Assembly: GCA_934129885.1 (NCBI GenBank)
Contig: CAKOWU010000002.1
Location: 76,070-140,069, forward strand
Origin: an uncultured Bacilli bacterium
Lineage (GTDB): Bacteria; Bacillota_I; Bacilli_A; RF39; UBA660
Length of the DNA: 64,000 bases
Direction: 5' to 3'
Within the stretch, counting starts at the first letter, position 1, and every line of letters begins with the position of its first letter. Shown here one piece after another: positions 103-56,484 of this stretch. Below the pieces are notes generated by a model. It saw only the letters and a program-made list of their open reading frames with translations. It was not told the origin of the DNA and did no database searches. The translations under genes and the position numbers were made by a program.

Positions 103-140
103 AAGTGAACATTCCTAACCTGAATTATTGGACAAGTCCG

Positions 141-215
141 ATAAAACACGTTGTTAGCGTTGGAGTTAAAATAAGGTGCGATAAGACGCATCACTTTTCA
201 AAAGTATCCATCATG
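141..215 (-). repeat. Degenerate AAC-rich partial copy of the 3' coding region of the adjacent gene (template-repeat-like relic)
   Basis: Minus strand reads ATCGCACCTTATTTTAACTCCAACGCTAACAACGTGTTTTAT. It shows 29/41 identities to each hypervariable block. In 6 of the 12 mismatches versus copy 1 this copy carries A. Confidence 0.35.
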
Positions 216-262
216 GCCCGCTCTTCTGATTAGGCCATGTGTAAAATTTAAATTTAAATCGT

Positions 263-373
263 CAGGCAGCTGCTGACGCAGTCGCCTGATTATTCTGCGA
301 GACTTTCGCTATCGCTCGTCCCGCTCCTGCGTCCCTTTCAGGGACTTATCAATTGCTTCGTTTATATTTTATC
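263..373 (-). repeat. Conserved GC-rich 3' non-coding element, copy 1 (partner 22213..22323)
   Basis: 111 nt immediately after the stop codon, only 3 substitutions versus the partner. Contains hairpins GTCCCT-GAA-AGGGAC and CGTCAG-N7-CTGACG. Far more GC-rich than surrounding DNA. Confidence 0.85.
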
Positions 374-1849
374 TTATCCTACGGTATACGGACTATCTGA
401 AGTCCCGTCTCCCTCAAGAGAGATGTCAGAGGATAGATAAAGAACTGGCGCCGCGCCGAAACTGTTAAGAGCGAAGTTGTAGATCAGGTTGCCGCCACTG
501 CCCACATTGAACACGAGGCTAACGTTGGAGCTAGAGGAAGGCGCGATTGTCCATGAAAAACTTTTTGCCGCAGGTCCTGCGTAAATCCAGTTATGCGTAT
601 CACTATTATTATAACATGATGATGTAACAGAATATGCATTTACATTTGTACATGCGGAATTGGTACTGGCTTTTACATAATCACTTTGATTCATTAATCC
701 TACTTTACCTTTCCATTTATACGTTTGTTCCTGCGATATTGTATTTGATAAATTGGTTTCATCTTTTTTTGTTACTCCTACATTAAACATATGTGATACT
801 ACTATATTTTGAACATTACTACTTAAACTATTATACCAATCATTATTTAAATATGTATTTAAATAAGCTTCTTTCTCCGGTAAATCTTTTAAAGTTCCAT
901 CTACAGTCCGAGGCATTTGGGTTACATTTTTTCCATTGGTATCAAGTGTAGTTGTTTTACTTCCCCATACATTGCAGCCCAAGTATGAAGATGCTTTAGA
1001 AACATAACAGTAATCTGCACTTGTACTAGAATATCTAGTACCATCAGTTGAATTTGAACCTGTTACACCAGTAATGCTTGTTGAATACCCAGGGTCAAAC
1101 ACCTTATTACCTATACTACCATTCTTTATTACCTTGAGTGTGTTATCACTTTCTACCGATATTATTCTATATGTATCTGTACCTAATGTAATATAGTTAT
1201 TTGGGTTTGCTCCTCTATACACATATCTGCCTGCTTCGGTAGTATCTTTATATAAACCATCACCAGATGTTGTCGCTAACGTTTTTAAATCGTCTATACT
1301 TTTACCATTAGAAGTTATTGGTATATCACTCGTACCATCACTTTGTGTAAAGTCTAAAGTAGCGGTTAGTGATGCATCTAGTTTTGTGGGCTGTGATGTG
1401 ATTTTACTATTATATGTTACACTTACATTAAGTATAGCACTCTCTCCTTTACGTAATACTCCGCCTTCTTTTAAACCTTTTGTTTCAAATAATACTGCTG
1501 GGTTATCTTCTTTAGTTAAAGTTATTTTATTAAGTTTGGCGTCTAAACTACCTTTATTTTCTACCTTAATATTATAAGTTATAGAGTCTCCTGGAGACAC
1601 TAAATTGGTACTAAAAGTCGCAGTTAGTTTTTCAAAGGTTGGCTGCTCTTTTACTGATGCACTACCTACTTTATTACTAGTAGTAATATCTGTTATCTCT
1701 ACATCCCATGTAGTAGATATATTAGATGTACCAGATATCTTTAAACTACTTGCGAAAGCCGCATATCCTACGGCCATAACAACTATAACCGCAAGTAAAC
1801 CTCCTATAAGTATATTTTTATTATTCTTATAACTTCTATGTCTATTCAT
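374..1849 (-). CDS. Secreted/surface protein, paralog 1: basic N-terminus plus one TM with a GYAAFASSLKISG motif, and a C-terminal W-x-x-x-P...G-A-A-P-V-L-Y-L lectin-like module with a hypervariable block
   Basis: 491-aa ORF, GGTGAT RBS, highly similar by eye along its length to 22324..23802 apart from a linker region and the hypervariable block. Confidence 0.85.
   Translation of the reverse strand: MNRHRSYKNNKNILIGGLLAVIVVMAVGYAAFASSLKISGTSNISTTWDVEITDITTSNKVGSASVKEQPTFEKLTATFSTNLVSPGDSITYNIKVENKGSLDAKLNKITLTKEDNPAVLFETKGLKEGGVLRKGESAILNVSVTYNSKITSQPTKLDASLTATLDFTQSDGTSDIPITSNGKSIDDLKTLATTSGDGLYKDTTEAGRYVYRGANPNNYITLGTDTYRIISVESDNTLKVIKNGSIGNKVFDPGYSTSITGVTGSNSTDGTRYSSTSADYCYVSKASSYLGCNVWGSKTTTLDTNGKNVTQMPRTVDGTLKDLPEKEAYLNTYLNNDWYNSLSSNVQNIVVSHMFNVGVTKKDETNLSNTISQEQTYKWKGKVGLMNQSDYVKASTNSACTNVNAYSVTSSCYNNSDTHNWIYAGPAAKSFSWTIAPSSSSNVSLVFNVGSGGNLIYNFALNSFGAAPVLYLSSDISLEGDGTSDSPYTVG
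455..531 (-). other. Hypervariable block, copy 1 (DGR variable-region-like)
   Basis: 26 codons, 17 ending in C. 20 differences from copy 2, 18 of them at codon positions 1-2. Followed 3' by the 12-nt G/C-only run 447..458. Confidence 0.6.
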
Positions 1850-1919
1850 ATTTTATCACCTTTACTACTTTAAATATACATAATATTTGGGATGAATATT
1901 GTCGAACATTTTCTTGTAC

Positions 1920-1985
1920 GAAACACCTAAAACGTCCTATTGCTACTATGGCAATGATATCAAAAAATAGAAATAATGTAAATAA
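1920..1985 (-). promoter_or_regulatory. Conserved upstream box, copy 1 of 3
   Basis: AAACACCTAAAACGTCCTATTGCTACTATGGCAATGATATCAAAAAA is shared with 23873..23945 and 16801..16860. TGTCGAA (0A-box-like) lies at 1900..1906. Confidence 0.5.
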
Positions 1986-2002
1986 CAAAGCATATATTTG
2001 TA

Positions 2003-2032
2003 AGAAAAAGAAGACCTATTTGACAGTCTTCT
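2003..2032 (-). terminator. Terminator after aspS
   Basis: Stem AGAAGAC/GTCTTCT (2009-2015 / 2026-2032) followed by TTTTTC on the minus strand. Confidence 0.5.
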
Positions 2033-3773
2033 ATCTTATCTTTATATGAACTTCTCTAAGTTGTTGTTCTGAAACAGTACTAGGAGAACCCATCATATTA
2101 TCAATACCTAAAGTATTAGGTGGGAATGCTTGTACTTCTCTTAAATTTTTCTCATCACGTAATAACATAAGCATTCTATCTATTCCAGGAGCCATACCGG
2201 CATGTGGAGGAACTCCATACTTAAATGCTGTATAAAGTGATTTAAATTTTTCTTTAACAATATCTTCTGTATAGCCTACTTCCTTAAATCCGTGCATTAA
2301 ACTATCTAAATCATGGTTACGTACAGCACCTGAACTCATTTCAAAGCCATTACATACAAAGTCATATTGATAAGCAAGTATATCTTTTATATCGCCATTA
2401 TATGCGTTCATACCACCTTGTGGCATACTAAATGGATTATGTCCAAAATCCCATTTATTTTCTTCTTCGTTCCACTCAAACATAGGCATATCATTAATAA
2501 TACAAAATTCGTATTTATTAGGATCTATTAATTCTAACTTTTTACCTAACTCTGTTCTTATTTGACCGGCGTAATTTGCCGCGACTGATTCTTTTCTGTT
2601 AGCGATAAAGAATATAACATCTCCTTTTGAAAGTTCTGCCTTACTAATTAGTGCTTTTCTCTCATCATCAGATAGAAATTTATCAATAGGGCCTTTAAAG
2701 GTATTATCGCCTAAAACAGATATATATCCAATACCAGGCATACCAATTGAAGATGCGAAATCTACTATTTCATTAAACCAACTATTAGATTTATCTGCGA
2801 TGCCTTCTACTTTTATACCTCTAACAATGGACTTTTGAAAAGGTTTAAATGTAGTATTCGCAAATTCTTCTGTTAAATCTATTATCAAAAGGGGATTTCT
2901 TAAATCTGGTTTATCAGTACCATATTTAAGCATTGCCTCTTTATATGGTATTCTTTTAAATGGTCTTTCTGAAACTTCTTTTGATGAAAAATGTTTGAAA
3001 GTATCGTAAAATATTTCTTCACCTATTTTATAAACATCTTCTTCAGTTGCGAAAGCCATTTCAAAATCTAACTGGTAAAACTCAAGGGTTCTATCAGCAC
3101 GAGAGTCTTCATCTCTAAAGCAAGGTGCGATTTGATAATACTTATCAAAGCCCCCTACCATAAGTAACTCCTTGAATATTTGTGGAGCCTGCGGTAAAGC
3201 ATAAAACTGACCTTTATACTTTCTAGATGGAACTAGAAAATCTCTAGCACCCTCTGGAGATGAAGCTGTTAAAATAGGTGTTTGAACTTCAGTAAAACCT
3301 AAACTATCCATTTTATTTCTTAAATATTTTAATAGTTCACTTCTAAACTTAATATTATCATGTACTCTATTGTTTCTCATATCTAAATAGCGATACTTAA
3401 GTCTTAATTCTTCATTTACTTTAGTGCTTGTTTTTATCTCAAATGGTAATTCATGTAAAGACTTGCCAAGTAGTGTAAACTCTTTAATAAGTATCTCTAC
3501 TGTACCAGATTTAATTTTTGGATTAAAGTTTTCTTCATCACGCATTCTAACAACGCCCTCTAAAGAAATAGTAGATTCTTTAGCAAGCCCATTAAATATA
3601 GAATCATCGTTACTTACTATTTGAACAGTACCAGTTTCGTCTCTTAAATCTACAAATATAACTCCGCCATGATCTCTAATGTTTTCTACCCAGCCTGCGA
3701 CCTTTACAGTTTTACCAAGAACGTCCTCAGTAATTTCACCGGGTCTTATATTTCTATATATATTATCCATCAT
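2031..3773 (-). CDS. aspS: Aspartate--tRNA ligase, probably non-discriminating given linkage to gatCAB and tRNA-Asn
   Basis: 580 aa with class II aaRS motifs (FRDED..R, GGMAPGIDR-like GMAPGIDRMLML) and an OB-fold N-terminus. Confidence 0.95.
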   Translation of the reverse strand: MMDNIYRNIRPGEITEDVLGKTVKVAGWVENIRDHGGVIFVDLRDETGTVQIVSNDDSIFNGLAKESTISLEGVVRMRDEENFNPKIKSGTVEILIKEFTLLGKSLHELPFEIKTSTKVNEELRLKYRYLDMRNNRVHDNIKFRSELLKYLRNKMDSLGFTEVQTPILTASSPEGARDFLVPSRKYKGQFYALPQAPQIFKELLMVGGFDKYYQIAPCFRDEDSRADRTLEFYQLDFEMAFATEEDVYKIGEEIFYDTFKHFSSKEVSERPFKRIPYKEAMLKYGTDKPDLRNPLLIIDLTEEFANTTFKPFQKSIVRGIKVEGIADKSNSWFNEIVDFASSIGMPGIGYISVLGDNTFKGPIDKFLSDDERKALISKAELSKGDVIFFIANRKESVAANYAGQIRTELGKKLELIDPNKYEFCIINDMPMFEWNEEENKWDFGHNPFSMPQGGMNAYNGDIKDILAYQYDFVCNGFEMSSGAVRNHDLDSLMHGFKEVGYTEDIVKEKFKSLYTAFKYGVPPHAGMAPGIDRMLMLLRDEKNLREVQAFPPNTLGIDNMMGSPSTVSEQQLREVHIKIR

Positions 3774-3774
3774 C

Positions 3775-5229
3775 TCACCTCTTCTCTATTTCTTCTAGCA
3801 TAGTCTCACGTGCCATACTAGGATTAGCCTTTCCTTTAGTCTTTTTCATAATTTGACCTACTAAATAATCAGCAACATTATTTTTACCAGATTTATATTT
3901 TTCTACTAACTCTGGATTTTCATCTAATACCTCGTTAGCAACTTTCACAATCGCAGTCTTATCAGTTATCTGCATCATGCCTTTTTCTTTGACTATTGCC
4001 TCTGGTACCTTACCTTCTGCCATACAAATTGCAAAAACTTCTTTGGCTTGTTTTGAAGATATAACCTTATCTTCTACAAGTTTAATAAGTTGACATAAGT
4101 GGGCAGGTGTCATTAAAGCATCAGAAATAGTCTTATTTTCTTTATTAAGAGTACCAAGTATATTAGTTGTGATCCAGTTAGAAGCACTCTTAGGATTAGC
4201 ATCTAAACTAATAGCCTCTTCAAAGAAATCAGACACATCTTTTTCCTTAACTAATATAGTGGCATCATAATCAGTTAAACCATATTCTTCTATATATAAC
4301 TTCTTTCTTTCTGAAGCAAGCATAGGAATTTCTTCCTTAATCTCTTCTATCCATTCTTTAGATAATCTAACCTTTGGAATATTTGGCTCTACAAAATATT
4401 TATAATCAATGGCGTCTGCCTTACTACGCATAAACTTTGTACTCATAGAATCTTCATCCCATCTACGAGTTTGTTGTTCCATAGAATCGTATTCACCAGT
4501 CTCTTTTAGATCGGTTTGTCTTTCTATTTCATAGTTAATAGCGTCTCTAACACCACCGAAAGAATTGACATTCTTAATCTCAATTTTAGTACCCCAGTTA
4601 CTTGGGTCATTCTCATCAAGTGAGGCATCCATGATAGACACATTAACATCACATCTAATTTGTCCTTTTTTACTATCAGCCTCACTTATACCAGCATACT
4701 GATATATACTTCTCATGGTTTCTAGGAATGCGACTGCCTCATCAGCACTTCTAAAACAAGGAGTTGTAACAAGTTCAAGTAATGGAACGCCCGCTCTATT
4801 ATAATCAATCTTTGATACATCACCAGTATGAACTGAAGATGCAGCATCTTCTTCTAAATGCAAATTATCAATGATAGCTTCTTTTTCTTCGCCATTACAT
4901 TCAAATTTTAATTTACCATATATTCCAACTGGTATAGGTTTAGTTTCCTGCGTAATTTGAAAGCCTTTAGGTAAATCTGGATAGTAATAGTTTTTTCTTT
5001 CAAAATACATATATTCTGGTTGTGTGCATTTTAATATTAAACTTGCCATAACTGCTTTTTTTACGGCTTCTTTATTAACTACTGGTAAAGTACCAGGAAA
5101 AGCCATATCAACTGGTCTAATATTAACATTCGCACTTTCATTATAATCATTCGCCGCAGATGAAAATACTTTAGTATTAGTTTCACTTATCTCACAGTGC
5201 ATTTCAAGTCCAATTAATGCCTTATACAT
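3775..5229 (-). CDS. gatB: Asp/Glu-tRNA amidotransferase subunit B
   Basis: 484 aa with the typical GatB N-terminus (IGLEMHCE...) and a C-terminal YqeY-like tail. Confidence 0.95.
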   Translation of the reverse strand: MYKALIGLEMHCEISETNTKVFSSAANDYNESANVNIRPVDMAFPGTLPVVNKEAVKKAVMASLILKCTQPEYMYFERKNYYYPDLPKGFQITQETKPIPVGIYGKLKFECNGEEKEAIIDNLHLEEDAASSVHTGDVSKIDYNRAGVPLLELVTTPCFRSADEAVAFLETMRSIYQYAGISEADSKKGQIRCDVNVSIMDASLDENDPSNWGTKIEIKNVNSFGGVRDAINYEIERQTDLKETGEYDSMEQQTRRWDEDSMSTKFMRSKADAIDYKYFVEPNIPKVRLSKEWIEEIKEEIPMLASERKKLYIEEYGLTDYDATILVKEKDVSDFFEEAISLDANPKSASNWITTNILGTLNKENKTISDALMTPAHLCQLIKLVEDKVISSKQAKEVFAICMAEGKVPEAIVKEKGMMQITDKTAIVKVANEVLDENPELVEKYKSGKNNVADYLVGQIMKKTKGKANPSMARETMLEEIEKR

Positions 5230-6686
5230 TATTTCACCTCCATGGCTGTTTGCCCTTTATAGTCCATACTGCTTTCTAAAGCATAAGCAATATTTAAAAC
5301 ATTTACGTCGTCATAGCATTTTCCTGTTATATTAAGTCCTACTGGAAGATTATTTACAAAACCATCAGGTATAGTAATTGATGGGAAACCGCCAAAGTTT
5401 CCTATTTGTAGATGATCCTCTAAAGCATTTATATTTTTATCTTCACTGCTGAAGGAATAATCTATATCTTTCGCAGGTCCAGTACTTACAGGAAGAATAA
5501 TGCCATCATATTCTTTAAAAAGTTCGTTCCATCTATCCACTAAAAGTCTTCTAACTCTTTGAGCATTATGGAAATATCTGTCCTTGTTCTCTGACTGTAG
5601 AACATAAGAACCAATTACAAATCTTCTTTTAATGAGTGAAGAAAAGCCTTCGGTACGATATTTTTTCATAGACTCATCCCATGTCTTACCTTCTGCTCTA
5701 GGTCCAAAGATAAAACCAGTTAAATTGCTCATATTTGATGTTGCCTCTGCGCATGATATAACAACATAAACTGATGGCTCTGCGTCGAGTAGTTTTCTAT
5801 CTACTGATACGCCTTCAACCTCAATACCTAATTTCTCACATAACTTTAACTTGTCTTTAAAGTTTTCTAAATGCATCTTTAATTCATCATCAGCATTAGG
5901 ATAGTTTTCTATATCACACAACTCTTTAATGTAACATAACTTTTTACCTTTAACGTTTCCATCTATACTATCATATAAATTAATATCAGATGAATCCCAA
6001 GAAGTCATATCATATTTATCGATACCTTTCATACCATCTACTACAATAGCGGCATCCTTTACACTTCTAGTTAAAGCCCCACAGTGATCTAAACTACTAG
6101 CAAAAGGAAATAAGCCATATCTTGATATCATACCATATGTAGGTTTATAACCAACTATACCGCAGTATGCCGCAGGCTTTCTAATAGAATCTCCAGTATC
6201 ACTACCTGTCGCATATGGAATAACTCCAGCCGCAACTGCTGCTGCACTTCCTGAAGAAGAACCAGCACACATTTTAGATGTATCCCATGGATTTAAAATC
6301 TTACCAGTATGTGCCGTAGTACCAGTACCGCCCATGCCAAATTCATCCATCGCTGTCTTAGATACTAGTGTAGCACCATGTTTTGATAAATTTTCTATTG
6401 CTGTAGCACTAAAAAATGGAACGTAATTTTTTAAAGTATTTGAAGAACCTGTTGAAAGAATACCTTTGGTACTATAATTATCTTTTGCGGCATAAGGAAT
6501 ACCAGATAATAAATCATCAGTAACTTTCTTTTCTTCTACGTCATCTAAAATAGTAACAAAAGCATTACATTTTTTTTGTAATTCTTTAGACTTTTCTATA
6601 GCCTCTTTAATAAGTTCTTTACTTGTTACTTTGTTTTCTTTTAAATCATTATGTATTTGTTCAATACTTTTATCCATATATGACAT
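5229..6686 (-). CDS. gatA: Asp/Glu-tRNA amidotransferase subunit A (amidase signature)
   Basis: Amidase signature GGSSSGSAAAVAAG. Likely start is MSYMDKS at 6686, just after the gatC stop. Confidence 0.95.
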   Translation of the reverse strand: MSYMDKSIEQIHNDLKENKVTSKELIKEAIEKSKELQKKCNAFVTILDDVEEKKVTDDLLSGIPYAAKDNYSTKGILSTGSSNTLKNYVPFFSATAIENLSKHGATLVSKTAMDEFGMGGTGTTAHTGKILNPWDTSKMCAGSSSGSAAAVAAGVIPYATGSDTGDSIRKPAAYCGIVGYKPTYGMISRYGLFPFASSLDHCGALTRSVKDAAIVVDGMKGIDKYDMTSWDSSDINLYDSIDGNVKGKKLCYIKELCDIENYPNADDELKMHLENFKDKLKLCEKLGIEVEGVSVDRKLLDAEPSVYVVISCAEATSNMSNLTGFIFGPRAEGKTWDESMKKYRTEGFSSLIKRRFVIGSYVLQSENKDRYFHNAQRVRRLLVDRWNELFKEYDGIILPVSTGPAKDIDYSFSSEDKNINALEDHLQIGNFGGFPSITIPDGFVNNLPVGLNITGKCYDDVNVLNIAYALESSMDYKGQTAMEVK

Positions 6687-6687
6687 A

Positions 6688-6984
6688 TTATCCCACCATC
6701 CTTGGTACAACTACGGCATCTCCATCACTATCACCGCAGTTAGCAAATATTTCTTCTTTTGATATTGACTCTTCTTTTACATCTTCTCTAAATGTACACT
6801 CAAAATCATCTAATGCATGAGTCATTGGAACAATATCACTAATATCATCTATCTCATTTATTCTAGCAATACTAGCGTCTATTTCCTCAAATTCATCAAG
6901 CACTTTTTTATTTTCTTCTTCTGTAAGACCAATTAATAACTTATCTGCATAGTCATCAACCATTTCTTTAGTAAACTTTCCCAT
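6688..6984 (-). CDS. gatC: Asp/Glu-tRNA amidotransferase subunit C
   Basis: 98 aa, sits upstream of gatA, has a GGAGG RBS. Confidence 0.9.
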   Translation of the reverse strand: MGKFTKEMVDDYADKLLIGLTEEENKKVLDEFEEIDASIARINEIDDISDIVPMTHALDDFECTFREDVKEESISKEEIFANCGDSDGDAVVVPRMVG

Positions 6985-7012
6985 TACATATCCTCCTTTT
7001 AAAACAAAATAT

Positions 7013-7047
7013 ATAAAAAATAAGTCTATAGGATAAATCCTAGAGAC
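7013..7047 (-). terminator. Hairpin plus U-run between tRNA-Asn and gatC (terminator or attenuator/processing site)
   Basis: Minus strand GUCUCUAGG-AUUUAU-CCUAUAGAC (8 bp plus 1 mismatch) followed by UUAUUUUUUAU. Confidence 0.4.
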
Positions 7048-7063
7048 CTACTTAATAACTAAA

Positions 7064-7139
7064 TGGCGCCTGATGTAGGACTCGAACCTACGACCTAACG
7101 GTTAACAGCCGTGCGCTCTACCGACTGAGCTAATCAGGC
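7064..7139 (-). tRNA. tRNA-Asn (GUU), encoded CCA
   Basis: Cloverleaf read by hand: acceptor GCCUGAU/AUCAGGC, anticodon loop CUGUUAA, T-arm GGUUCGAGUCC. Confidence 0.9.
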
Positions 7140-7143
7140 AAAG

Positions 7144-7219
7144 TGGCGCCCAATGTAGGACTCGAACCTACGACCTAACGGTTAACAGCCGTGCGCTCTA
7201 CCAACTGAGCTAATTGGGC
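7144..7219 (-). tRNA. tRNA-Asn (GUU), second tandem copy
   Basis: Body identical to 7064..7139, with compensated acceptor-stem changes (GCCCAAU/AUUGGGC). Confidence 0.9.
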
Positions 7220-7221
7220 AA

Positions 7222-7480
7222 AAGTATAAAAAGACAGTTAAGCGTCCCCATATAAGGACGAATAACTGTAACTCGCGGTACCACCTTATTTATCACACGA
7301 AGTGATCTCTCTATAGTTTCAAATGAAACTTATAACGCGGTAACGGGTTACATCCGATTTATCCTACTGTTATTTCAGATAAATTACTCTGTGGTGTTAT
7401 TCACAGTAGTATTATTATTAGTTCTCATCATACTAACTTTCTGTAAATAAGTGACTACTGTTACTTCTCCACTTCCTAGT
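7222..7480 (-). promoter_or_regulatory. T-box riboswitch leader, candidate Asn (AAC) specifier
   Basis: T-box sequence AAUAAGGUGGUACCGCGAG (7271-7290). Terminator ACAGUUA..CGUCC-loop-GGACG..UAACUGU plus CUUUUUAU. Stem I base GUGG/CCAC encloses AGAAGUAA and UGAAUAACA, with AAC-A (7396-7398) directly before the closing helix. Confidence 0.75.
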
Positions 7481-16757: not shown

Positions 16758-16800
16758 ATCATGTCCCTTTATCTTATGAAATATATTTTATTATTAGGTG

Positions 16801-16860
16801 AAACACCTAAATTATCCTATTGCTGTTATGGTAATAATATCAAAAAATAATGGTAACGCA
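16801..16860 (-). promoter_or_regulatory. Conserved upstream box, copy 3
   Basis: AAACACCTAAATTATCCTATTGCTGTTATGGTAATAATATCAAAAAA, about 42/50 identical to copy 1. Confidence 0.45.
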
Positions 16861-16891
16861 AGTACCGTATGTGCAGGTTACCTATTTTTGT

Positions 16892-16966: not shown

Positions 16967-17890
16967 TTATTTTTCTATTTTCAATTCTTCAATTTCATTT
17001 TCTGATAAACCCGTGCACTTAATGATAATTTCTAACGGTAAATGCTCCTTTAGCATATTTTTGGCTACTTTCTTTGCGTTTTCTAATGCGCCAACTGTCT
17101 TGCCATGTTTTTCGCCATTAATGTATCCCTCTTCTTGTCCAACTTCTTTACCATTGGCAAAATAAGTATTTCGGGTTTTCTCCTCATCTTCCTCTTTTGA
17201 CATAAATTCTATGAAGTCAGAATCATTGTTAATCTCTTTTACACTCTTTACAAACTCTTTCATAATCTTATCTCCGTTCGCACTTAATCTCTCTAATTCC
17301 TCTTTACCTAATGCAAGCATCGCTACATGGAAGTACTTGCTGTTACCATTATTATACCATGCCTTAAGTATTTTAGACCCATTAAATTCGATTATCTTGA
17401 ATTTGGTCGAGTATTCAAGGCCGGTTTCTTTATCAGTAAGAACGTATACGGCTTTTTCAGGATAGTGCTCTGGCAGGCCATAAGTAAAGTTTATGAGTAT
17501 TGCTTCATCTACATTTTTATAATCACTTCCTGACTTTATAACATTAGAGAATAAAGCACAAAGATATGAAAGTCCTTTCTCATGCTGACCATCATAAAAA
17601 GATGAGTTCATTTCTAAAATGGCATGTCTACCGCCTTCCAAAGTAACCATAACATCTACTCTTTGTTTTTTTGTCCACACGCTTTTATAAGGTAATTCTA
17701 AAATATTGGAATTAAGCACAGTTACCTTTTCTTCCATAGACATATCTAAATAATACTTTAATAAGTTCCTTCTTCCTACAAACATAGCCTTAAATACCGA
17801 GTCCGCTAGTGGTTTATAGAATACTGTTCCATCTGGCAACACCTCCTTTGTTTGAATATTTTTTGTATCCATTTTTTTCACATTGTTCAT
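16967..17890 (-). CDS. Rpn-family recombination-promoting nuclease / putative transposase (PD-(D/E)XK)
   Basis: 307 aa with N-terminal DSVFKAMF motif and a C-terminal helical tail, typical of YhgA/Rpn-like proteins. Confidence 0.7.
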   Translation of the reverse strand: MNNVKKMDTKNIQTKEVLPDGTVFYKPLADSVFKAMFVGRRNLLKYYLDMSMEEKVTVLNSNILELPYKSVWTKKQRVDVMVTLEGGRHAILEMNSSFYDGQHEKGLSYLCALFSNVIKSGSDYKNVDEAILINFTYGLPEHYPEKAVYVLTDKETGLEYSTKFKIIEFNGSKILKAWYNNGNSKYFHVAMLALGKEELERLSANGDKIMKEFVKSVKEINNDSDFIEFMSKEEDEEKTRNTYFANGKEVGQEEGYINGEKHGKTVGALENAKKVAKNMLKEHLPLEIIIKCTGLSENEIEELKIEK

Positions 17891-18168: not shown

Positions 18169-19197
18169 TTAATTAGTACCAGTCCAGTTTAACGTCGCAT
18201 TCGTCGCACCCCATGGGGTGCCTTCTATAGCCCCTTCTTTTCTATTTACATTAATCATGGTTAAATTTTCATTATCTTTGAATGTACTTTGATGTATTGT
18301 TTTTACTGTAGACGGCAAATCTATGCTTGTGATTGTTTCTCCCGCTAAAGACATATTATTTAATGTTTCAACCCCTTCTTCTATTGTTACTTTTCTTGCC
18401 ATACTATAAGCAAAACAATAACTTGGAATTTCTTTTATTCTTCCCGGGATAGTTATTTCTTCATATTTTACATTTACATATGCCTCGGGCTGAATAACAG
18501 TTATCGTATCTGGTATTGATGTTCCAGTCGCATTCCTTCCTGCATAACTATTTAACACAGAATAATTTGTACTACCATCTGAATTAATACCATAAATAAA
18601 GGCTGCATCACCTTTTAGATTATTATTGCCAAAAGCACCACCTTCCATATATGTTACACTACTTGGAATATTTATCTCAGTGAGATTATTACCATTAAAA
18701 GCATCTAATCCTATATTTTTTAAACCTTCATTTAATTTTAAATATTTTATTTCATTATACTCAAATGCGTATTTACCAACTTCCTTTATATTAGTGGGCA
18801 AAGTTAAACTTTCTAATTTATTCGAATGAAACGCATAATTTCCTACCTCAACTAAAGTATCTGGTAATGTTAATTTGGTAATACCTTTATCCTGAAATGC
18901 TTTATCTCCTATTTTGGTAACAGTAAGTCCTTTTATAGTAGAAGGAATATTTACTTCTGTTCCACATGATTTATCATAATCAGTTATGGTTACTGTACCA
19001 TTTCCATTATCTGAGGTTCCATAACATTTATCAGATACTTTATATACATTGCCTTTGGCAGATAGGTTTATATTGGTGCTGAAGGCAGAGTAGCCTGTGA
19101 CAAGTACAAAAGTTAAACAAAGGAATATAGATGCGAATATTATTCTATGTTTTACAATATCTTTTTTTCTTAATCTTCTTTGGTATTTTCTTTGCAT
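18169..19197 (-). CDS. Leucine-rich-repeat (BspA-type) surface protein with GYSAFSTNINLS signal motif
   Basis: Repeats of the form I-P-x-x-V-x-x-I-G-x-x-A-F. Likely start is MQRKYQRR at 19197. Confidence 0.75.
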   Translation of the reverse strand: MQRKYQRRLRKKDIVKHRIIFASIFLCLTFVLVTGYSAFSTNINLSAKGNVYKVSDKCYGTSDNGNGTVTITDYDKSCGTEVNIPSTIKGLTVTKIGDKAFQDKGITKLTLPDTLVEVGNYAFHSNKLESLTLPTNIKEVGKYAFEYNEIKYLKLNEGLKNIGLDAFNGNNLTEINIPSSVTYMEGGAFGNNNLKGDAAFIYGINSDGSTNYSVLNSYAGRNATGTSIPDTITVIQPEAYVNVKYEEITIPGRIKEIPSYCFAYSMARKVTIEEGVETLNNMSLAGETITSIDLPSTVKTIHQSTFKDNENLTMINVNRKEGAIEGTPWGATNATLNWTGTN

Positions 19198-19549
19198 AAG
19201 ATATGGCACCCTTTCTACTAGGATTAACATATAACTCATAGTTATACGTTAATTATCTATATAAATCATACCACAAAATTGTCGGTTTGTATCATTATAT
19301 ATATCAAAGCACTCTTTTTTACCTTCATTTTTAATGTATAACTGTGAGTTATACATTAATGGTTGGACAATTTTATATTTCTTATGATATTCGTAAGAAG
19401 TTTAAGGGTTATATAGGTTTGTTTTTGATATGTTATGTGATTTTACTATATGGTTGTGTAGTTAACAAGAGAAAATTCTCTTCTGATTTTTACTATATCA
19501 CTTTTTTTATGGTTATGAATATAATACTATGAATATGAAAGGAGAGTTT

Positions 19550-22067: not shown

Positions 22068-22212
22068 GATGTGCTTTGTCTACAATCTTACAAAGTAAAA
22101 GGTAAAACATAAGAAGCATTTACATAATTCTTCCTCCTTGTTTTCCCACAAAAAAATATGGAATGTAAATCTTATAATTTACACACCATATTATACAAGG
22201 CCTTTAAACCAG

Positions 22213-22323
22213 CAGGCAGCTGCTGACGCAGTCGCCTGATTATCCTGCGAGACTTTCGCTATCGCTCGTCCCGCTCCTGCGTCCCTTTCAGGGACTTACC
22301 AATTGCTTCGTTTATGTTTTATC
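22213..22323 (-). repeat. Conserved GC-rich 3' non-coding element, copy 2
   Basis: 108/111 identical to 263..373. Confidence 0.85.
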
Positions 22324-23802
22324 TTATCCTACAGTATACGGACTATTTGAAATCCCGTCTCCCTCAAGAGAGATATCAGAGGATAGATAAAGAACTGGCG
22401 CCGCACCGTAACTGTTAATAGCGTAGTCGTGGCTCAGGCCGCCGTCACTGTACACATGGAACATGTTGCTAGCGTTTAAGGTAGAGGAAGGCGCGATTGT
22501 CCATGAAAAATTTTTTGCCGCAGGTCCTGCGTAAATCCAGTTATGCGTAGCACTTTCTTCATAACATGATGAATTATTCCAATATGCCATTACACTTGTA
22601 CACTCTGAATTAGTACTTGCTTTTACATAATCACTTGGATTCATTAATCCTACTTTACCTTTCCATTTATACGTTTGTTCCTGCGTTATTGTATTTGATA
22701 AATTTGTTACATTATATTTCGTTACACCAACATTAAACATATGTGATACTACTATATTTTGAACATTACTACTTAAACTATTATACCAATCATTATTTAA
22801 ATATGTATTCAAATAAGCTTCTTTCTCCGGCAAATCTTTTAAAGTTCCATCTATAGTCCAAGGCATTTGTGTTACATTTTTTCCATTAGTATCAAGCGTT
22901 GTTGTTTTGCTTCCCCATACTTTACAGCCCAAGTATGAAGATGCTGAAGAATCATAACAGTAATCTGTCCTTGTACTAGAATATCTAGTACCATCAGTTG
23001 AATTTGAACCTGTTACGTCAGTAATGCTTGTTGAATACCCAGGGTCAAACACCTTAATACCTATACTACCATTTTTTATTACCTTTAGTGTGTTATCACT
23101 TTCTATGGCAATTATTCTATATGTATCTGTACCTAATGTAATATAGTTATTTGGGTTTGCTCCTCTATATACATATCTGCCTGCTTCCGTAGAATCAGTA
23201 TAGAGTCCGTCACCACTGGTAACTACTTTTGCTTTTAACATTTCTGCGGCAGCATTACTAGTATCTCCACCAGTACTACCACTACTTCCGTCACTTTGGA
23301 CAAAGTCTAATGTAACTGTTAGAGATGCATCTAGATTAGTAGGTTGTGAGGTAACGCTATTACTATAAGTTACTTTTACTGACAATGTAGAAGATGTACC
23401 TTGTTTTAAGACATCACCTTCTTTTATACCACTTGTTTCAAATAATATCGCAGAATTATTATCTTTTTTTAGGGCTATTTTATTAAGTTTGGCATTTAGG
23501 TTACCTTTGTTTTCTACTTTTATATTATAAGTTATACTATCGCCAGGCAACACTAAATTAGTATTAAATGTAGCCGTTAGCCCGTCATAACTAGGTGTGC
23601 CACTTACTGATGCACTACCTACTTTATTACTAGTTGTAATGTCAGTGATTGATATATTCCAAGATGTAGATATATTAGATGTACCAGATATCTTTAAACT
23701 ACTTGCGAAAGCCGCATATCCTACCGCCATAATAACTACAACCGCAAGTAAGCCTCCTATAAGTATGCTTTTATTATTCTTATAACTTCTATGTCTGTTC
23801 AT
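22324..23802 (-). CDS. Secreted/surface protein, paralog 2
   Basis: 492 aa with the same architecture as 374..1849. Confidence 0.85.
   Translation of the reverse strand: MNRHRSYKNNKSILIGGLLAVVVIMAVGYAAFASSLKISGTSNISTSWNISITDITTSNKVGSASVSGTPSYDGLTATFNTNLVLPGDSITYNIKVENKGNLNAKLNKIALKKDNNSAILFETSGIKEGDVLKQGTSSTLSVKVTYSNSVTSQPTNLDASLTVTLDFVQSDGSSGSTGGDTSNAAAEMLKAKVVTSGDGLYTDSTEAGRYVYRGANPNNYITLGTDTYRIIAIESDNTLKVIKNGSIGIKVFDPGYSTSITDVTGSNSTDGTRYSSTRTDYCYDSSASSYLGCKVWGSKTTTLDTNGKNVTQMPWTIDGTLKDLPEKEAYLNTYLNNDWYNSLSSNVQNIVVSHMFNVGVTKYNVTNLSNTITQEQTYKWKGKVGLMNPSDYVKASTNSECTSVMAYWNNSSCYEESATHNWIYAGPAAKNFSWTIAPSSTLNASNMFHVYSDGGLSHDYAINSYGAAPVLYLSSDISLEGDGISNSPYTVG
22405..22481 (-). other. Hypervariable block, copy 2 (DGR variable-region-like)
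   Basis: 15 of 26 codons end in C. See the pairwise comparison with 455..531. Confidence 0.6.
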
Positions 23803-23872: not shown

Positions 23873-23945
23873 AAAGCACCTAAAATGTTCTATTGCTTCT
23901 ATGGTAATGATATCAAAAAACAGGGATGATGTAAATACTCCAGCA
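23873..23945 (-). promoter_or_regulatory. Conserved upstream box, copy 2
   Basis: AGCACCTAAAATGTTCTATTGCTTCTATGGTAATGATATCAAAAAA. TGTCGAA lies at 23853..23859. Confidence 0.5.
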
Positions 23946-48154: not shown

Positions 48155-48231
48155 GGGGAATTAGCTCAGTTGGCTAGAGCACCTGCTTTGCACGCAGGGG
48201 GTCAAGGGTTCGAGTCCCTTATTCTCCACCA
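48155..48231 (+). tRNA. tRNA-Ala (UGC) with G3:U70 and encoded CCA
   Basis: Acceptor GGGGAAU/AUUCUCC, anticodon loop CUUUGCA. Promoter TTGCAT-17-TGcTATAAT lies just upstream (48114-48141). Confidence 0.9.
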
Positions 48232-48282
48232 ATATGTTTATTAAAACCTTGATAATTCAAGGTTTTTCTTTATTTATAAGGG
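48216..48282 (+). repeat. Direct repeat (attL-like): last 16 nt of tRNA-Ala plus its terminator
   Basis: 67/67 identical to 56038..56104. Confidence 0.9.
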
Positions 48283-48330
48283 CTTTTGTTTTACAATATC
48301 ACATTTATATCACATTTTCTAAATTTCATT

Positions 48331-56037: not shown

Positions 56038-56104
56038 CCCTTATTCTCCACCAATATGTTTATTAAAACCTTGATAATTCAAGGTTTTTCTTTATTTATA
56101 AGGG
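56038..56104 (+). repeat. Direct repeat (attR-like)
   Basis: 67/67 identical to 48216..48282. Confidence 0.9.
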
Positions 56105-56484
56105 TTTTGTCATATTTTGTTTTTTTGTGGGCTACACCAAAATATATTACTTTCCTATCTATCATTTTATTATTAAAAGTAATTTATCACTCATCATATT
56201 ATCGCCATATATAATAAATTCATTTTCACCACCGTGCATAGACATACCAACTACCACCCCAATAATCAGCAGCAACAATTGACAAATGAAGTTACCTTTA
56301 TAATTTATAAGAACATTAAATGATTTTTTCAATGTGTAGCCCAAACATTTAAGATATCTTGGTAAAAATAAAATTTAAAATGTTGATGTTTATCAAAAAA
56401 AGTAATAACACAACTTATAGATAAGTATGAGAAATCAAAATCATTGCTATAATATCACTTATTAATTTAAAGGAGGAGATTAAT

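Follow-up and report, generated by a model that had tools for sequence, protein, structure and literature searches.

How did two related surface-type proteins of a gut bacterium come to differ so sharply in one short C-terminal block, when the DNA immediately 3' of that block is nearly the same in both genes? The question is raised by a 64,000-nucleotide stretch (the window) of contig CAKOWU010000002.1, assembly GCA_934129885.1, which forms part of a 114-kb Hadza gut metagenome contig from an uncultured Bacilli bacterium. An original prediction, made from the letters of the window, attributed the block to adenine mutagenesis of the type performed by diversity-generating retroelements (DGRs). 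Our analysis points the same way, on the grounds of NNC codons, adenine depletion, coincidence with template adenines, homologous complete cassettes, and a DUF6273 domain: positions 455-531 and 22405-22481 are very probably the variable repeats (VR1 and VR2) of two paralogous DGR target genes. The prediction described them as a remote or orphaned pair, and the data allow exactly this hedge, with no reverse transcriptase (RT) or template repeat (TR) found in the window or within 10 kb of most of the six paralog loci.

Substitution pattern of the variable block

The 3' ends of the two genes align without gaps at an offset of 21950, and recomputation of this alignment returned the counts from which the prediction had started. 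The 20 differences between VR1 and VR2 are distributed 8/10/2 over codon positions 1/2/3 and comprise 10 transitions and 10 transversions. Over the 438 codons upstream of the block, the corresponding split is 50/54/108, and the shift toward positions 1 and 2 within the block is therefore significant (Fisher p=3e-4, positions 1+2 versus 3). On the 3' side, the coding tail (454-377, here recomputed over 78 nt) contains 4 differences between the paralogs, all of them transitions (425, 402, 397, and 383), and the 111 nt past the stop codon (373-263) contain 3 (366, 349, and 294), both as originally counted. The density of differences is 20/77 in the block versus 7/186 in the 3' flank (p=4e-7), and homology between the paralogs stops at ~253/22203. 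The earlier claim that variation is confined to a short 3' block stands with respect to the near-identical 3' flank and the codon-position pattern, but not with respect to the upstream part of the genes, which is only ~84% identical. The block is thus distinct by comparison with its immediate flanks and by its codon-position pattern, and not by raw divergence alone.

Third codon positions provide a further contrast: C occupies this position in 17/26 codons (65%) of the VR1 block versus 36/438 (8%) upstream (p=1e-11), and 15/26 codons of the VR2 block are C ending. The TR-homologous stretch around VR1 probably spans ~541 to 446.

Template-adenine signature

A predicted template, derived from the two window copies only, was obtained by writing A at all 20 variable sites. 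The result (AAC TAA AAC GAT AGC AAC ATG TTC AAT GTG AAC AGT GAC GGC AAC CTG AAC AAC AAC TAC GCT ATT AAC AGT TAC) is dominated by AAC, the composition expected for a DGR template repeat, and is 81% identical over 57 nt to a real TR situated beside a homologous gene (L029:2349-2457; see below). Adenines of this real TR lie under 14/18 alignable variable sites, compared with 19/77 invariant sites (p=4.5e-5). When the DNA of four further same-species alleles (L104-L107) was added to the two window copies, 53/102 columns varied, and the 49 invariant columns consisted of 19 C, 15 T, 13 G, and only 2 A; nearly every A-bearing column varies, as DGR mutagenesis predicts.

A 302-aa C-terminal query retrieved 1601 homologs. 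Among the matches listed, the 40-residue segment W..AP...AP.LYL is present as 50 distinct alleles with 16 hypervariable columns, which coincide with VR1. The 15-residue repertoire accessible by AAC-to-NNC change makes up 98% of the residues at these columns in the 50 alleles listed, and K/E/Q/M/W make up 2%, versus 15.8% elsewhere. In the 472-aa class of homologs, 21 proteins carry at least 12 VR alleles, and column diversity is 0.28 to 0.33 in the VR versus at most 0.21 elsewhere.

Turnover is also evident between strains at single loci. Orthologs of paralog 2 at the spo0A locus (L106 and L107) have different VRs. A third paralog, which ends ~10 kb past the right-hand end of the window, on the upstream side of polC, has VRs that are unalignable among three strains (L098:1-162, L099:1-162, and L100:1-160), while the flanks are 99.2 to 99.7% identical over 17 to 20 kb and identity between strains restarts exactly at GGCGTNGCCCCAGTA. 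In two of the three strains, the variable block of this third paralog does not fit the scaffold typical of the family, an indication of several templates or of cassette exchange.

Complete DGR cassettes beside homologous genes

A protein-guided scan of the GTDB representatives yielded 79 loci with homologs, two of which (L065 and L067) contain an RT with the DGR motif IGNxxSQ...YMDD. The gene set of both comprises the target, a TR, a MutS_I-like open reading frame (ORF), bAvd, and RVT_1; in L065 the target gene lies at 130-3081 and the TR at ~3175-3290, and 15/15 core VR-TR mismatches are at a TR adenine. The TR of L029 emerged from an all-against-all screen for repeats with mismatches on A. 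Its neighboring target (425 aa) has the window-gene architecture, with 37% identity over residues 1-490 (E 2e-80), and is followed directly by the TR (2349-2457) and then by a MutS-I-like ORF, Avd, and RT. Mismatches between this TR and its own VR are at TR adenines in 22/22 cases, and those between the TR and VRs on three other contigs of the same metagenome-assembled genome (MAG) and in one other MAG are at TR adenines in 15-21 of 16-22 cases. One TR thus matches VRs on other contigs, and therefore remote multi-target DGRs exist in this gene family. The general order beside homologs is target, TR, MutS_I-like ORF, bAvd, (219-aa ORF), and RT.

The original prediction proposed a search for an RT and a template repeat and named their absence from the genome and close relatives as evidence that would count against it. 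Relatives carry both: the search was positive in related MAGs (L029 and L065) and found neither in the window or the same-species loci (233 kb with overlaps).

Two structural features of these cassettes were noted in passing. In MAG E40__bin28 (L029:3457-8032), the RT beside the TR is split within its LPIGNxTSQ motif by a 3.4-kb insertion containing three consecutive tyrosine-recombinase-like ORFs on the opposite strand (4249-7445), and a second partial RT of the same MAG lies on another contig (L096). At three loci (L067:3137-3746, L102 ~6270-7000, and L114 ~120-480), 2 to 5 tandem, non-identical TR-like units of ~166 to 170 nt separate the target gene from the accessory genes; the first unit of L102 is a match to the VR that differs from it at TR adenines, and other units there are richer in AAC.

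The GC-rich boundary and the 3' element

The 3' edge of each window VR is formed by a GC-only run, GGCGCGGCGCC, which resembles an initiation of mutagenic homing (IMH) element and, judged from sequence alignment, likely marks where TR homology ends on the 3' side. Its counterparts in the alignment are GGCGTCCGCCCA in L065, at the exact point of VR/TR divergence, and GCGGTTCTTCCCGCCA in the L029 family, again at the point where the VR and TR separate. Strain-to-strain homology in L098, L099, and L100 likewise restarts at the GC-rich boundary.

The boundary is followed by the conserved coding tail and then by a 3' untranslated element whose RNA fold (−43.2 kcal/mol, z = -4.9) places hairpins from ~110 nt downstream of the boundary, the last of which precedes a U-rich run and is terminator-like. 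The coding tail and the 111- to 121-nt 3' element are 91 to 93% identical to those of paralogs in the MAG CAKPSB01 (L007a), which represents a related genus, in comparison with ~70% for housekeeping DNA. No Rfam match was obtained for the 3' element. It is present after both window copies (W1 and W2) and after L106, L107, L007a, L009a, and L009b, is partial in L104, and is absent after L005, L007b, and L105. Since it is missing from some paralogs with hypervariable VRs, it is not required for carrying a VR. Window positions 250-600 form a GC-rich island (45 to 51% GC in a genome of ~30% GC), and a separate mobile insertion that brought a new C terminus was considered as its origin; this was rejected, as the coding part is homologous family-wide and the non-coding part is optional and separable.

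Predicted domains and fold of the target proteins

Both proteins have an N-terminal hydrophobic segment (in paralog 1 an anchor or signal segment containing LLAVIVVMAVGYAAF), a weak immunoglobulin (Ig)-like match, and a weak DUF6273 match over the C-terminal 150 residues. The variable block is carried in this C-terminal DUF6273-type domain. The Pfam scores for DUF6273 (E 1.4e-3, 18.9 bits for paralog 1; E 1.4e-4, 22.2 bits for paralog 2) lie below the curated cutoff of 23.5, and many close homologs have a precomputed PF19789 match. A search of NCBIfam with the protein gave no match, and the idea of a SipW/TasA-type signal at the N terminus was dropped.

The AF2 model of residues 190-491, based on 98 homologs, has a pLDDT of 95.6 and folds the variable block as a strand-turn-strand beta-hairpin. 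In Foldseek comparisons with BFVD, phage DUF6273 proteins rank on top (E 2e-8 to 1e-4), and the matches overall are phage DUF6273 and receptor-binding or tail proteins (E 2e-8 to 1e-3). The sole strong match in PDB is the Thomasclavelia ramosa IgA peptidase 9qa6 (E 6e-7); next come weak matches to the C-terminal domain of Legionella Lcl (E 0.2) and to a large number of C-type lectin domains (E 3 to 6). Modeling the domain by itself gave a poorer result than modeling both domains and did not sharpen the lectin match. DUF6273 has been described as C-type-lectin-like (PMC10743442) and is a published DGR target domain with its VR at the C-terminal end (PMC10743442, PMC11792537). The lectin-type binding tip of the original prediction therefore finds backing in the phage DUF6273 matches and the published domain description, but matches to solved C-type lectins are weak, and for this reason the assignment from the model is only suggestive.

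In several homologs (P0037, P0061, P0070-P0073, and others; also L007:11693-12991), a prepilin-type N-terminal methylation motif (PF07963) is joined to the same hypervariable DUF6273 tip, an architecture suggestive of a pilus or pseudopilus tip that is diversified by a DGR in Gram-positive gut bacteria.

Search for the cognate template and reverse transcriptase

The statement that the window contains no RT, Avd, or intact template repeat was borne out by three approaches. A third DNA copy of the repeat was not found in the window, nor was an ORF with a YxDD motif, and tblastn with the RT, Avd, and MutS-like (MSL) proteins of L029 and L065 gave no match at E<=1 in the window and the same-species loci. 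No RT or Avd gene was found near the six paralog loci in the flanks examined (10 kb for most loci). A C-terminal 111-aa query for TR-encoded ORFs returned only 8 VR-bearing fragments.

Relatives of the RT occur at 12 loci in GTDB representative MAGs of the same broad group and in none of the closest MAGs. RT contigs often end right at the TR, and cassettes are therefore easily lost from bins. Several candidates were discarded. A 20-mer from upstream of the VR, used as a TR probe, gave three chance matches in GC-rich genomes. A search for RT homologs yielded 4476, of which the contexts of P0207, P0143, and P0161 were inspected; their targets are of the SPS...GYGVRP type, and BLAST detected no similarity to the window VRs.

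Proposed mechanism and alternative explanations

We propose that a template repeat with AAC-type codons would be transcribed and copied by a DGR reverse transcriptase, assisted, on the model of the related cassettes, by bAvd and probably by a MutS-like accessory protein. The RT would misincorporate opposite template adenines, and the cDNA would replace the VR up to the GC-rich boundary GGCGCGGCGCC, so that the expected outcome is NNC codons differing between copies only at template-A sites. Each gene encodes a protein of surface type, and the predicted beta-hairpin at the end of its C-terminal DUF6273 domain is specified by VR codons. This scheme implies that the rest of the host genome contains, or once contained, a cognate TR and RT and that a TR transcript was presumably copied by an adenine-mutagenic RT and homed into both genes.

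Several observations weigh against a DGR origin or limit it. Neither the cognate TR nor its RT was found in the window or in the 233 kb of same-species loci, and the adenine specificity at the window VRs is for that reason deduced indirectly rather than read from a template. Neither the GTDB representatives nor IMG/VR yielded a match to a 46-nt scaffold pattern in which A and variable sites were written as N; a looser 43-nt pattern found only the two already known CAKPSB01 VRs in the same collections; a 29-nt pattern gave only six chance matches in the JGI metagenomes; and no phage or plasmid record matched the 3' region in BLAST. The all-A predicted template contains an in-frame TAA, 2/20 variable sites are third codon positions, 4/18 aligned variable sites are not A in the heterologous L029 TR, and 16/53 variable columns never show A in the six alleles. 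DNA folds of 374-462 and 22324-22412 revealed no significant hairpin directly past the GC-rich boundary (z = -0.5 and +0.6); to our knowledge, a hairpin or cruciform after the IMH is not universal among DGRs. The two flagged loci show no visible hypermutation at present: 3 cluster members share one VR1 allele and 7 distinct proteins (90% cluster) share one VR2 allele, although these proteins differ elsewhere. Finally, the alleles of L106, L098, and L099 differ in length or scaffold. Given these differences and the occurrence of shared alleles on different architectures, recombination between paralogs or several TRs must contribute too, and ordinary mutation may be added to the list.

The competing account that deserves most attention keeps the DGR in the past. 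The VRs would be fossils whose cassette has been lost or inactivated, and differences between alleles would now arise by recombination or gene conversion among the at least six paralogs, with exchange through the conserved flanks (WTIAP... upstream and ...APVLYLSSDISLEGDG plus the 3' element downstream). With regard to origin, this is a sub-case of the DGR reading preferred here, and only with regard to the present mechanism is it a rival. It fits the lack of RT, TR, Avd, or MSL near any of the six paralog loci, the fixation of VR1 and VR2 in several assemblies alongside N-terminal parts that form mosaics of two haplotypes, the occurrence of the same VR allele on proteins of different architecture, e.g., P0011 (492 aa) and P0042 (307 aa), and the variation in scaffold and length of alleles at one locus. 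The split RT of E40__bin28, with its three-recombinase block, also implies that cassette decay occurs in this family. However, only ~233 kb of the species genome is visible, overlaps included, and DGR cassettes tend to break assemblies; moreover, different VRs in the third paralog between strains of 99.2 to 99.7% identity are easier to explain with an active element, although conversion from unseen paralogs would work as well. On balance, we regard present-day fossil status as possible but as the less probable state of these genes.

Diversification without any DGR, through point mutation, positive selection, and gene conversion at an antigenic or ligand-binding hotspot, would account for clustered and replacement-biased variation, and neither a TR nor an RT was found in the window, the same-species loci, or the collections scanned; in addition, A is present in 13/20 site pairs, which is not far from the ~50% expected by chance. 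Selection at the protein level, however, leaves unexplained why variable codons keep a third-position C where 8% of codons end in C, why A is nearly absent from invariant columns, and why K/E/Q/M/W are excluded from the hypervariable positions. It is further disfavored because the variable sites coincide with adenines in a real TR and homologous genes are proven DGR targets, and we consider it very unlikely. If an assembler had collapsed or chimerized reads of different strains or paralogs where the 3' regions are repeated in this metagenome contig, an apparent variable block might also result, but both exact proteins occur on 4 to 5 independent contigs of up to 162 kb from different samples, both ORFs are intact, and the same architecture is found in many MAGs, such that an assembly artifact is scarcely credible.

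A more elaborate version of the DGR reading, which we consider improbable, postulates two layers of variation. A DGR, possibly mobile, shared between genera, or lost in some strains, would seed NNC cassettes; gene conversion among the at least six paralogs and among strains would then move them by way of the ultra-conserved flanks; and the coding tail with its three-hairpin 3' element would be a dedicated cis-acting recognition or recombination module and not just a terminator.

Relation to known systems

The window genes belong to a kind of target that is already known, i.e., remote DGR targets with a DUF6273 tip; what is new is a member in an uncultured gut Bacilli lineage. The closest counterparts are the DUF6273 targets of DGRs in gut phages and prophages (the "tentaclins" and the targets in Faecalibacterium prophages; PMC10743442, PMC11792537), which share the C-terminal VR hairpin, the NNC codons, and, judged from the weak Pfam hits and the top BFVD matches, the domain. 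In contrast to these phage targets, the window genes are chromosomal, with housekeeping and sporulation genes as neighbors; their products combine an N-terminal membrane or signal segment with an Ig-like domain (some paralogs have a prepilin-type N terminus, PF07963), and their family has at least six scattered copies per genome, with no adjacent cassette or prophage.

Service of scattered paralogous targets by one cassette, as in E40__bin28, is known from the DGR of Treponema denticola (TvpA and seven remote targets) and likewise from chromosomal DGRs with targets >100 kb away (Wu et al. 2018; PMC5758913), the study in which remote targets and MSL accessory genes were catalogued. The Treponema TvpA target has an FGE-sulfatase-type C-type lectin fold, in contrast to the DUF6273 of the window genes; the accessory is HRDC in Treponema versus bAvd plus a MutS-like protein in relatives of the window genes; and the cassette of the window genome was not located.

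The DGR of Bordetella phage BPP-1 (mtd VR, TR, avd, and brt) diversifies AAC-type codons by adenine-to-N change where a C-type-lectin-like receptor-binding gene ends on its 3' side, a pattern that the window genes probably share. A GC-rich element likewise lies at the 3' VR boundary in each case, GGCGCGGCGCC in the window; that of BPP-1 is a GC-only run inside the IMH. Unlike that of BPP-1, the window boundary is without a hairpin or cruciform directly downstream, and the window targets are bacterial, not phage borne, and are not adjacent to a TR and RT.

Architecture D DGRs with MSL genes, e.g., in Legionella (PMC5758913), have the same gene order as the cassettes beside the window-gene homologs, a likeness that concerns the relatives only. 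Several of these relatives have 2 to 5 tandem TR-like copies, unlike Architecture D DGRs.

To the known DGRs, the analysis adds a multi-target, chromosomal family found in Hadza and other human gut metagenomes, where its hosts are uncultured spore-forming Bacilli and its targets are surface proteins with a DUF6273 tip. Prepilin-type N termini are present in some paralogs, and therefore these bacteria appear to diversify adhesin-like or pilus-tip ligand binding. DGR targets can be recognized from sequence alone with the cassette elsewhere, and in fragmented MAGs such targets would escape tools centered on the cassette (e.g., DGRscan and myDGR). No mechanism is new; unless a function is demonstrated for the conserved 3' module or for cassette shuffling, the value is one of annotation and ecology.

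Feature coordinates and other features of the window

The features discussed above are listed in Table 1.

Table 1. Features of the putative DGR target genes, in window positions
Feature	Position	Strand	Basis
Putative target gene, paralog 1, 491 aa	374..1849	minus	ORF list, translation
Putative target gene, paralog 2, 492 aa, just downstream of spo0A	22324..23802	minus	ORF list, translation
Candidate VR1 core, residues 440-465, SSNVSLVFNVGSGGNLIYNFALNSFG	455..531	minus	20 differences from VR2; C-ending codons
Candidate VR2 core, STLNASNMFHVYSDGGLSHDYAINSYG	22405..22481	minus	Alignment to VR1, codon statistics
GC-only run GGCGCGGCGCC, IMH-like, VR 3' edge	447..457	minus	Read from sequence
Conserved coding tail after the VR, ending in PVLYLSSDISLEGDGTSDSPYTVG and the stop codon	374..446	minus	4 transitions in 78 nt between paralogs
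3' untranslated element, GC rich, three predicted hairpins	253..373	minus	RNA fold
Second copy of IMH-like run, coding tail, and 3' hairpin element	22203..22404	minus	Direct repeat D1, 90% over 300 nt

The host is an AT-rich spore-former (~30% GC) with spo0A, spoIVA, T-box leaders, and aminoacyl-tRNA synthetases. Its nearest GTDB species representative is the "uncultured Bacilli" MAG CAKPSB01, and identity of housekeeping DNA between the two is only ~70%.

A 65-nt sequence occurs at 1920-1984, 16800-16864, and 23873-23937 in copies that are 78 to 85% identical. Two of the three sit 70 to 135 nt upstream of both target genes, and the third is upstream of an apparent short ORF with a hydrophobic N terminus (~16700, minus strand); the sequence may be a shared promoter or operator. 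Between the target paralogs, a PD-(D/E)XK family transposase-like gene and a gene for a BspA-type leucine-rich-repeat surface protein (16967-17890 and 18169-19239) are adjacent to each other.

A direct repeat of 71 nt (99% identical) is located at 48216-48286 and 56038-56108, with a spacing of 7822 bp, and the tRNA gene at 48155-48228 extends with its 3' end into the first copy. The region between the copies contains mostly unannotated ORFs, one S41 peptidase, and one helix-turn-helix (HTH) protein, and no integrase was found in it. Strain L100 departs from the window sequence near the second copy, and the region between the repeats looks like the remnant of an integrated island.

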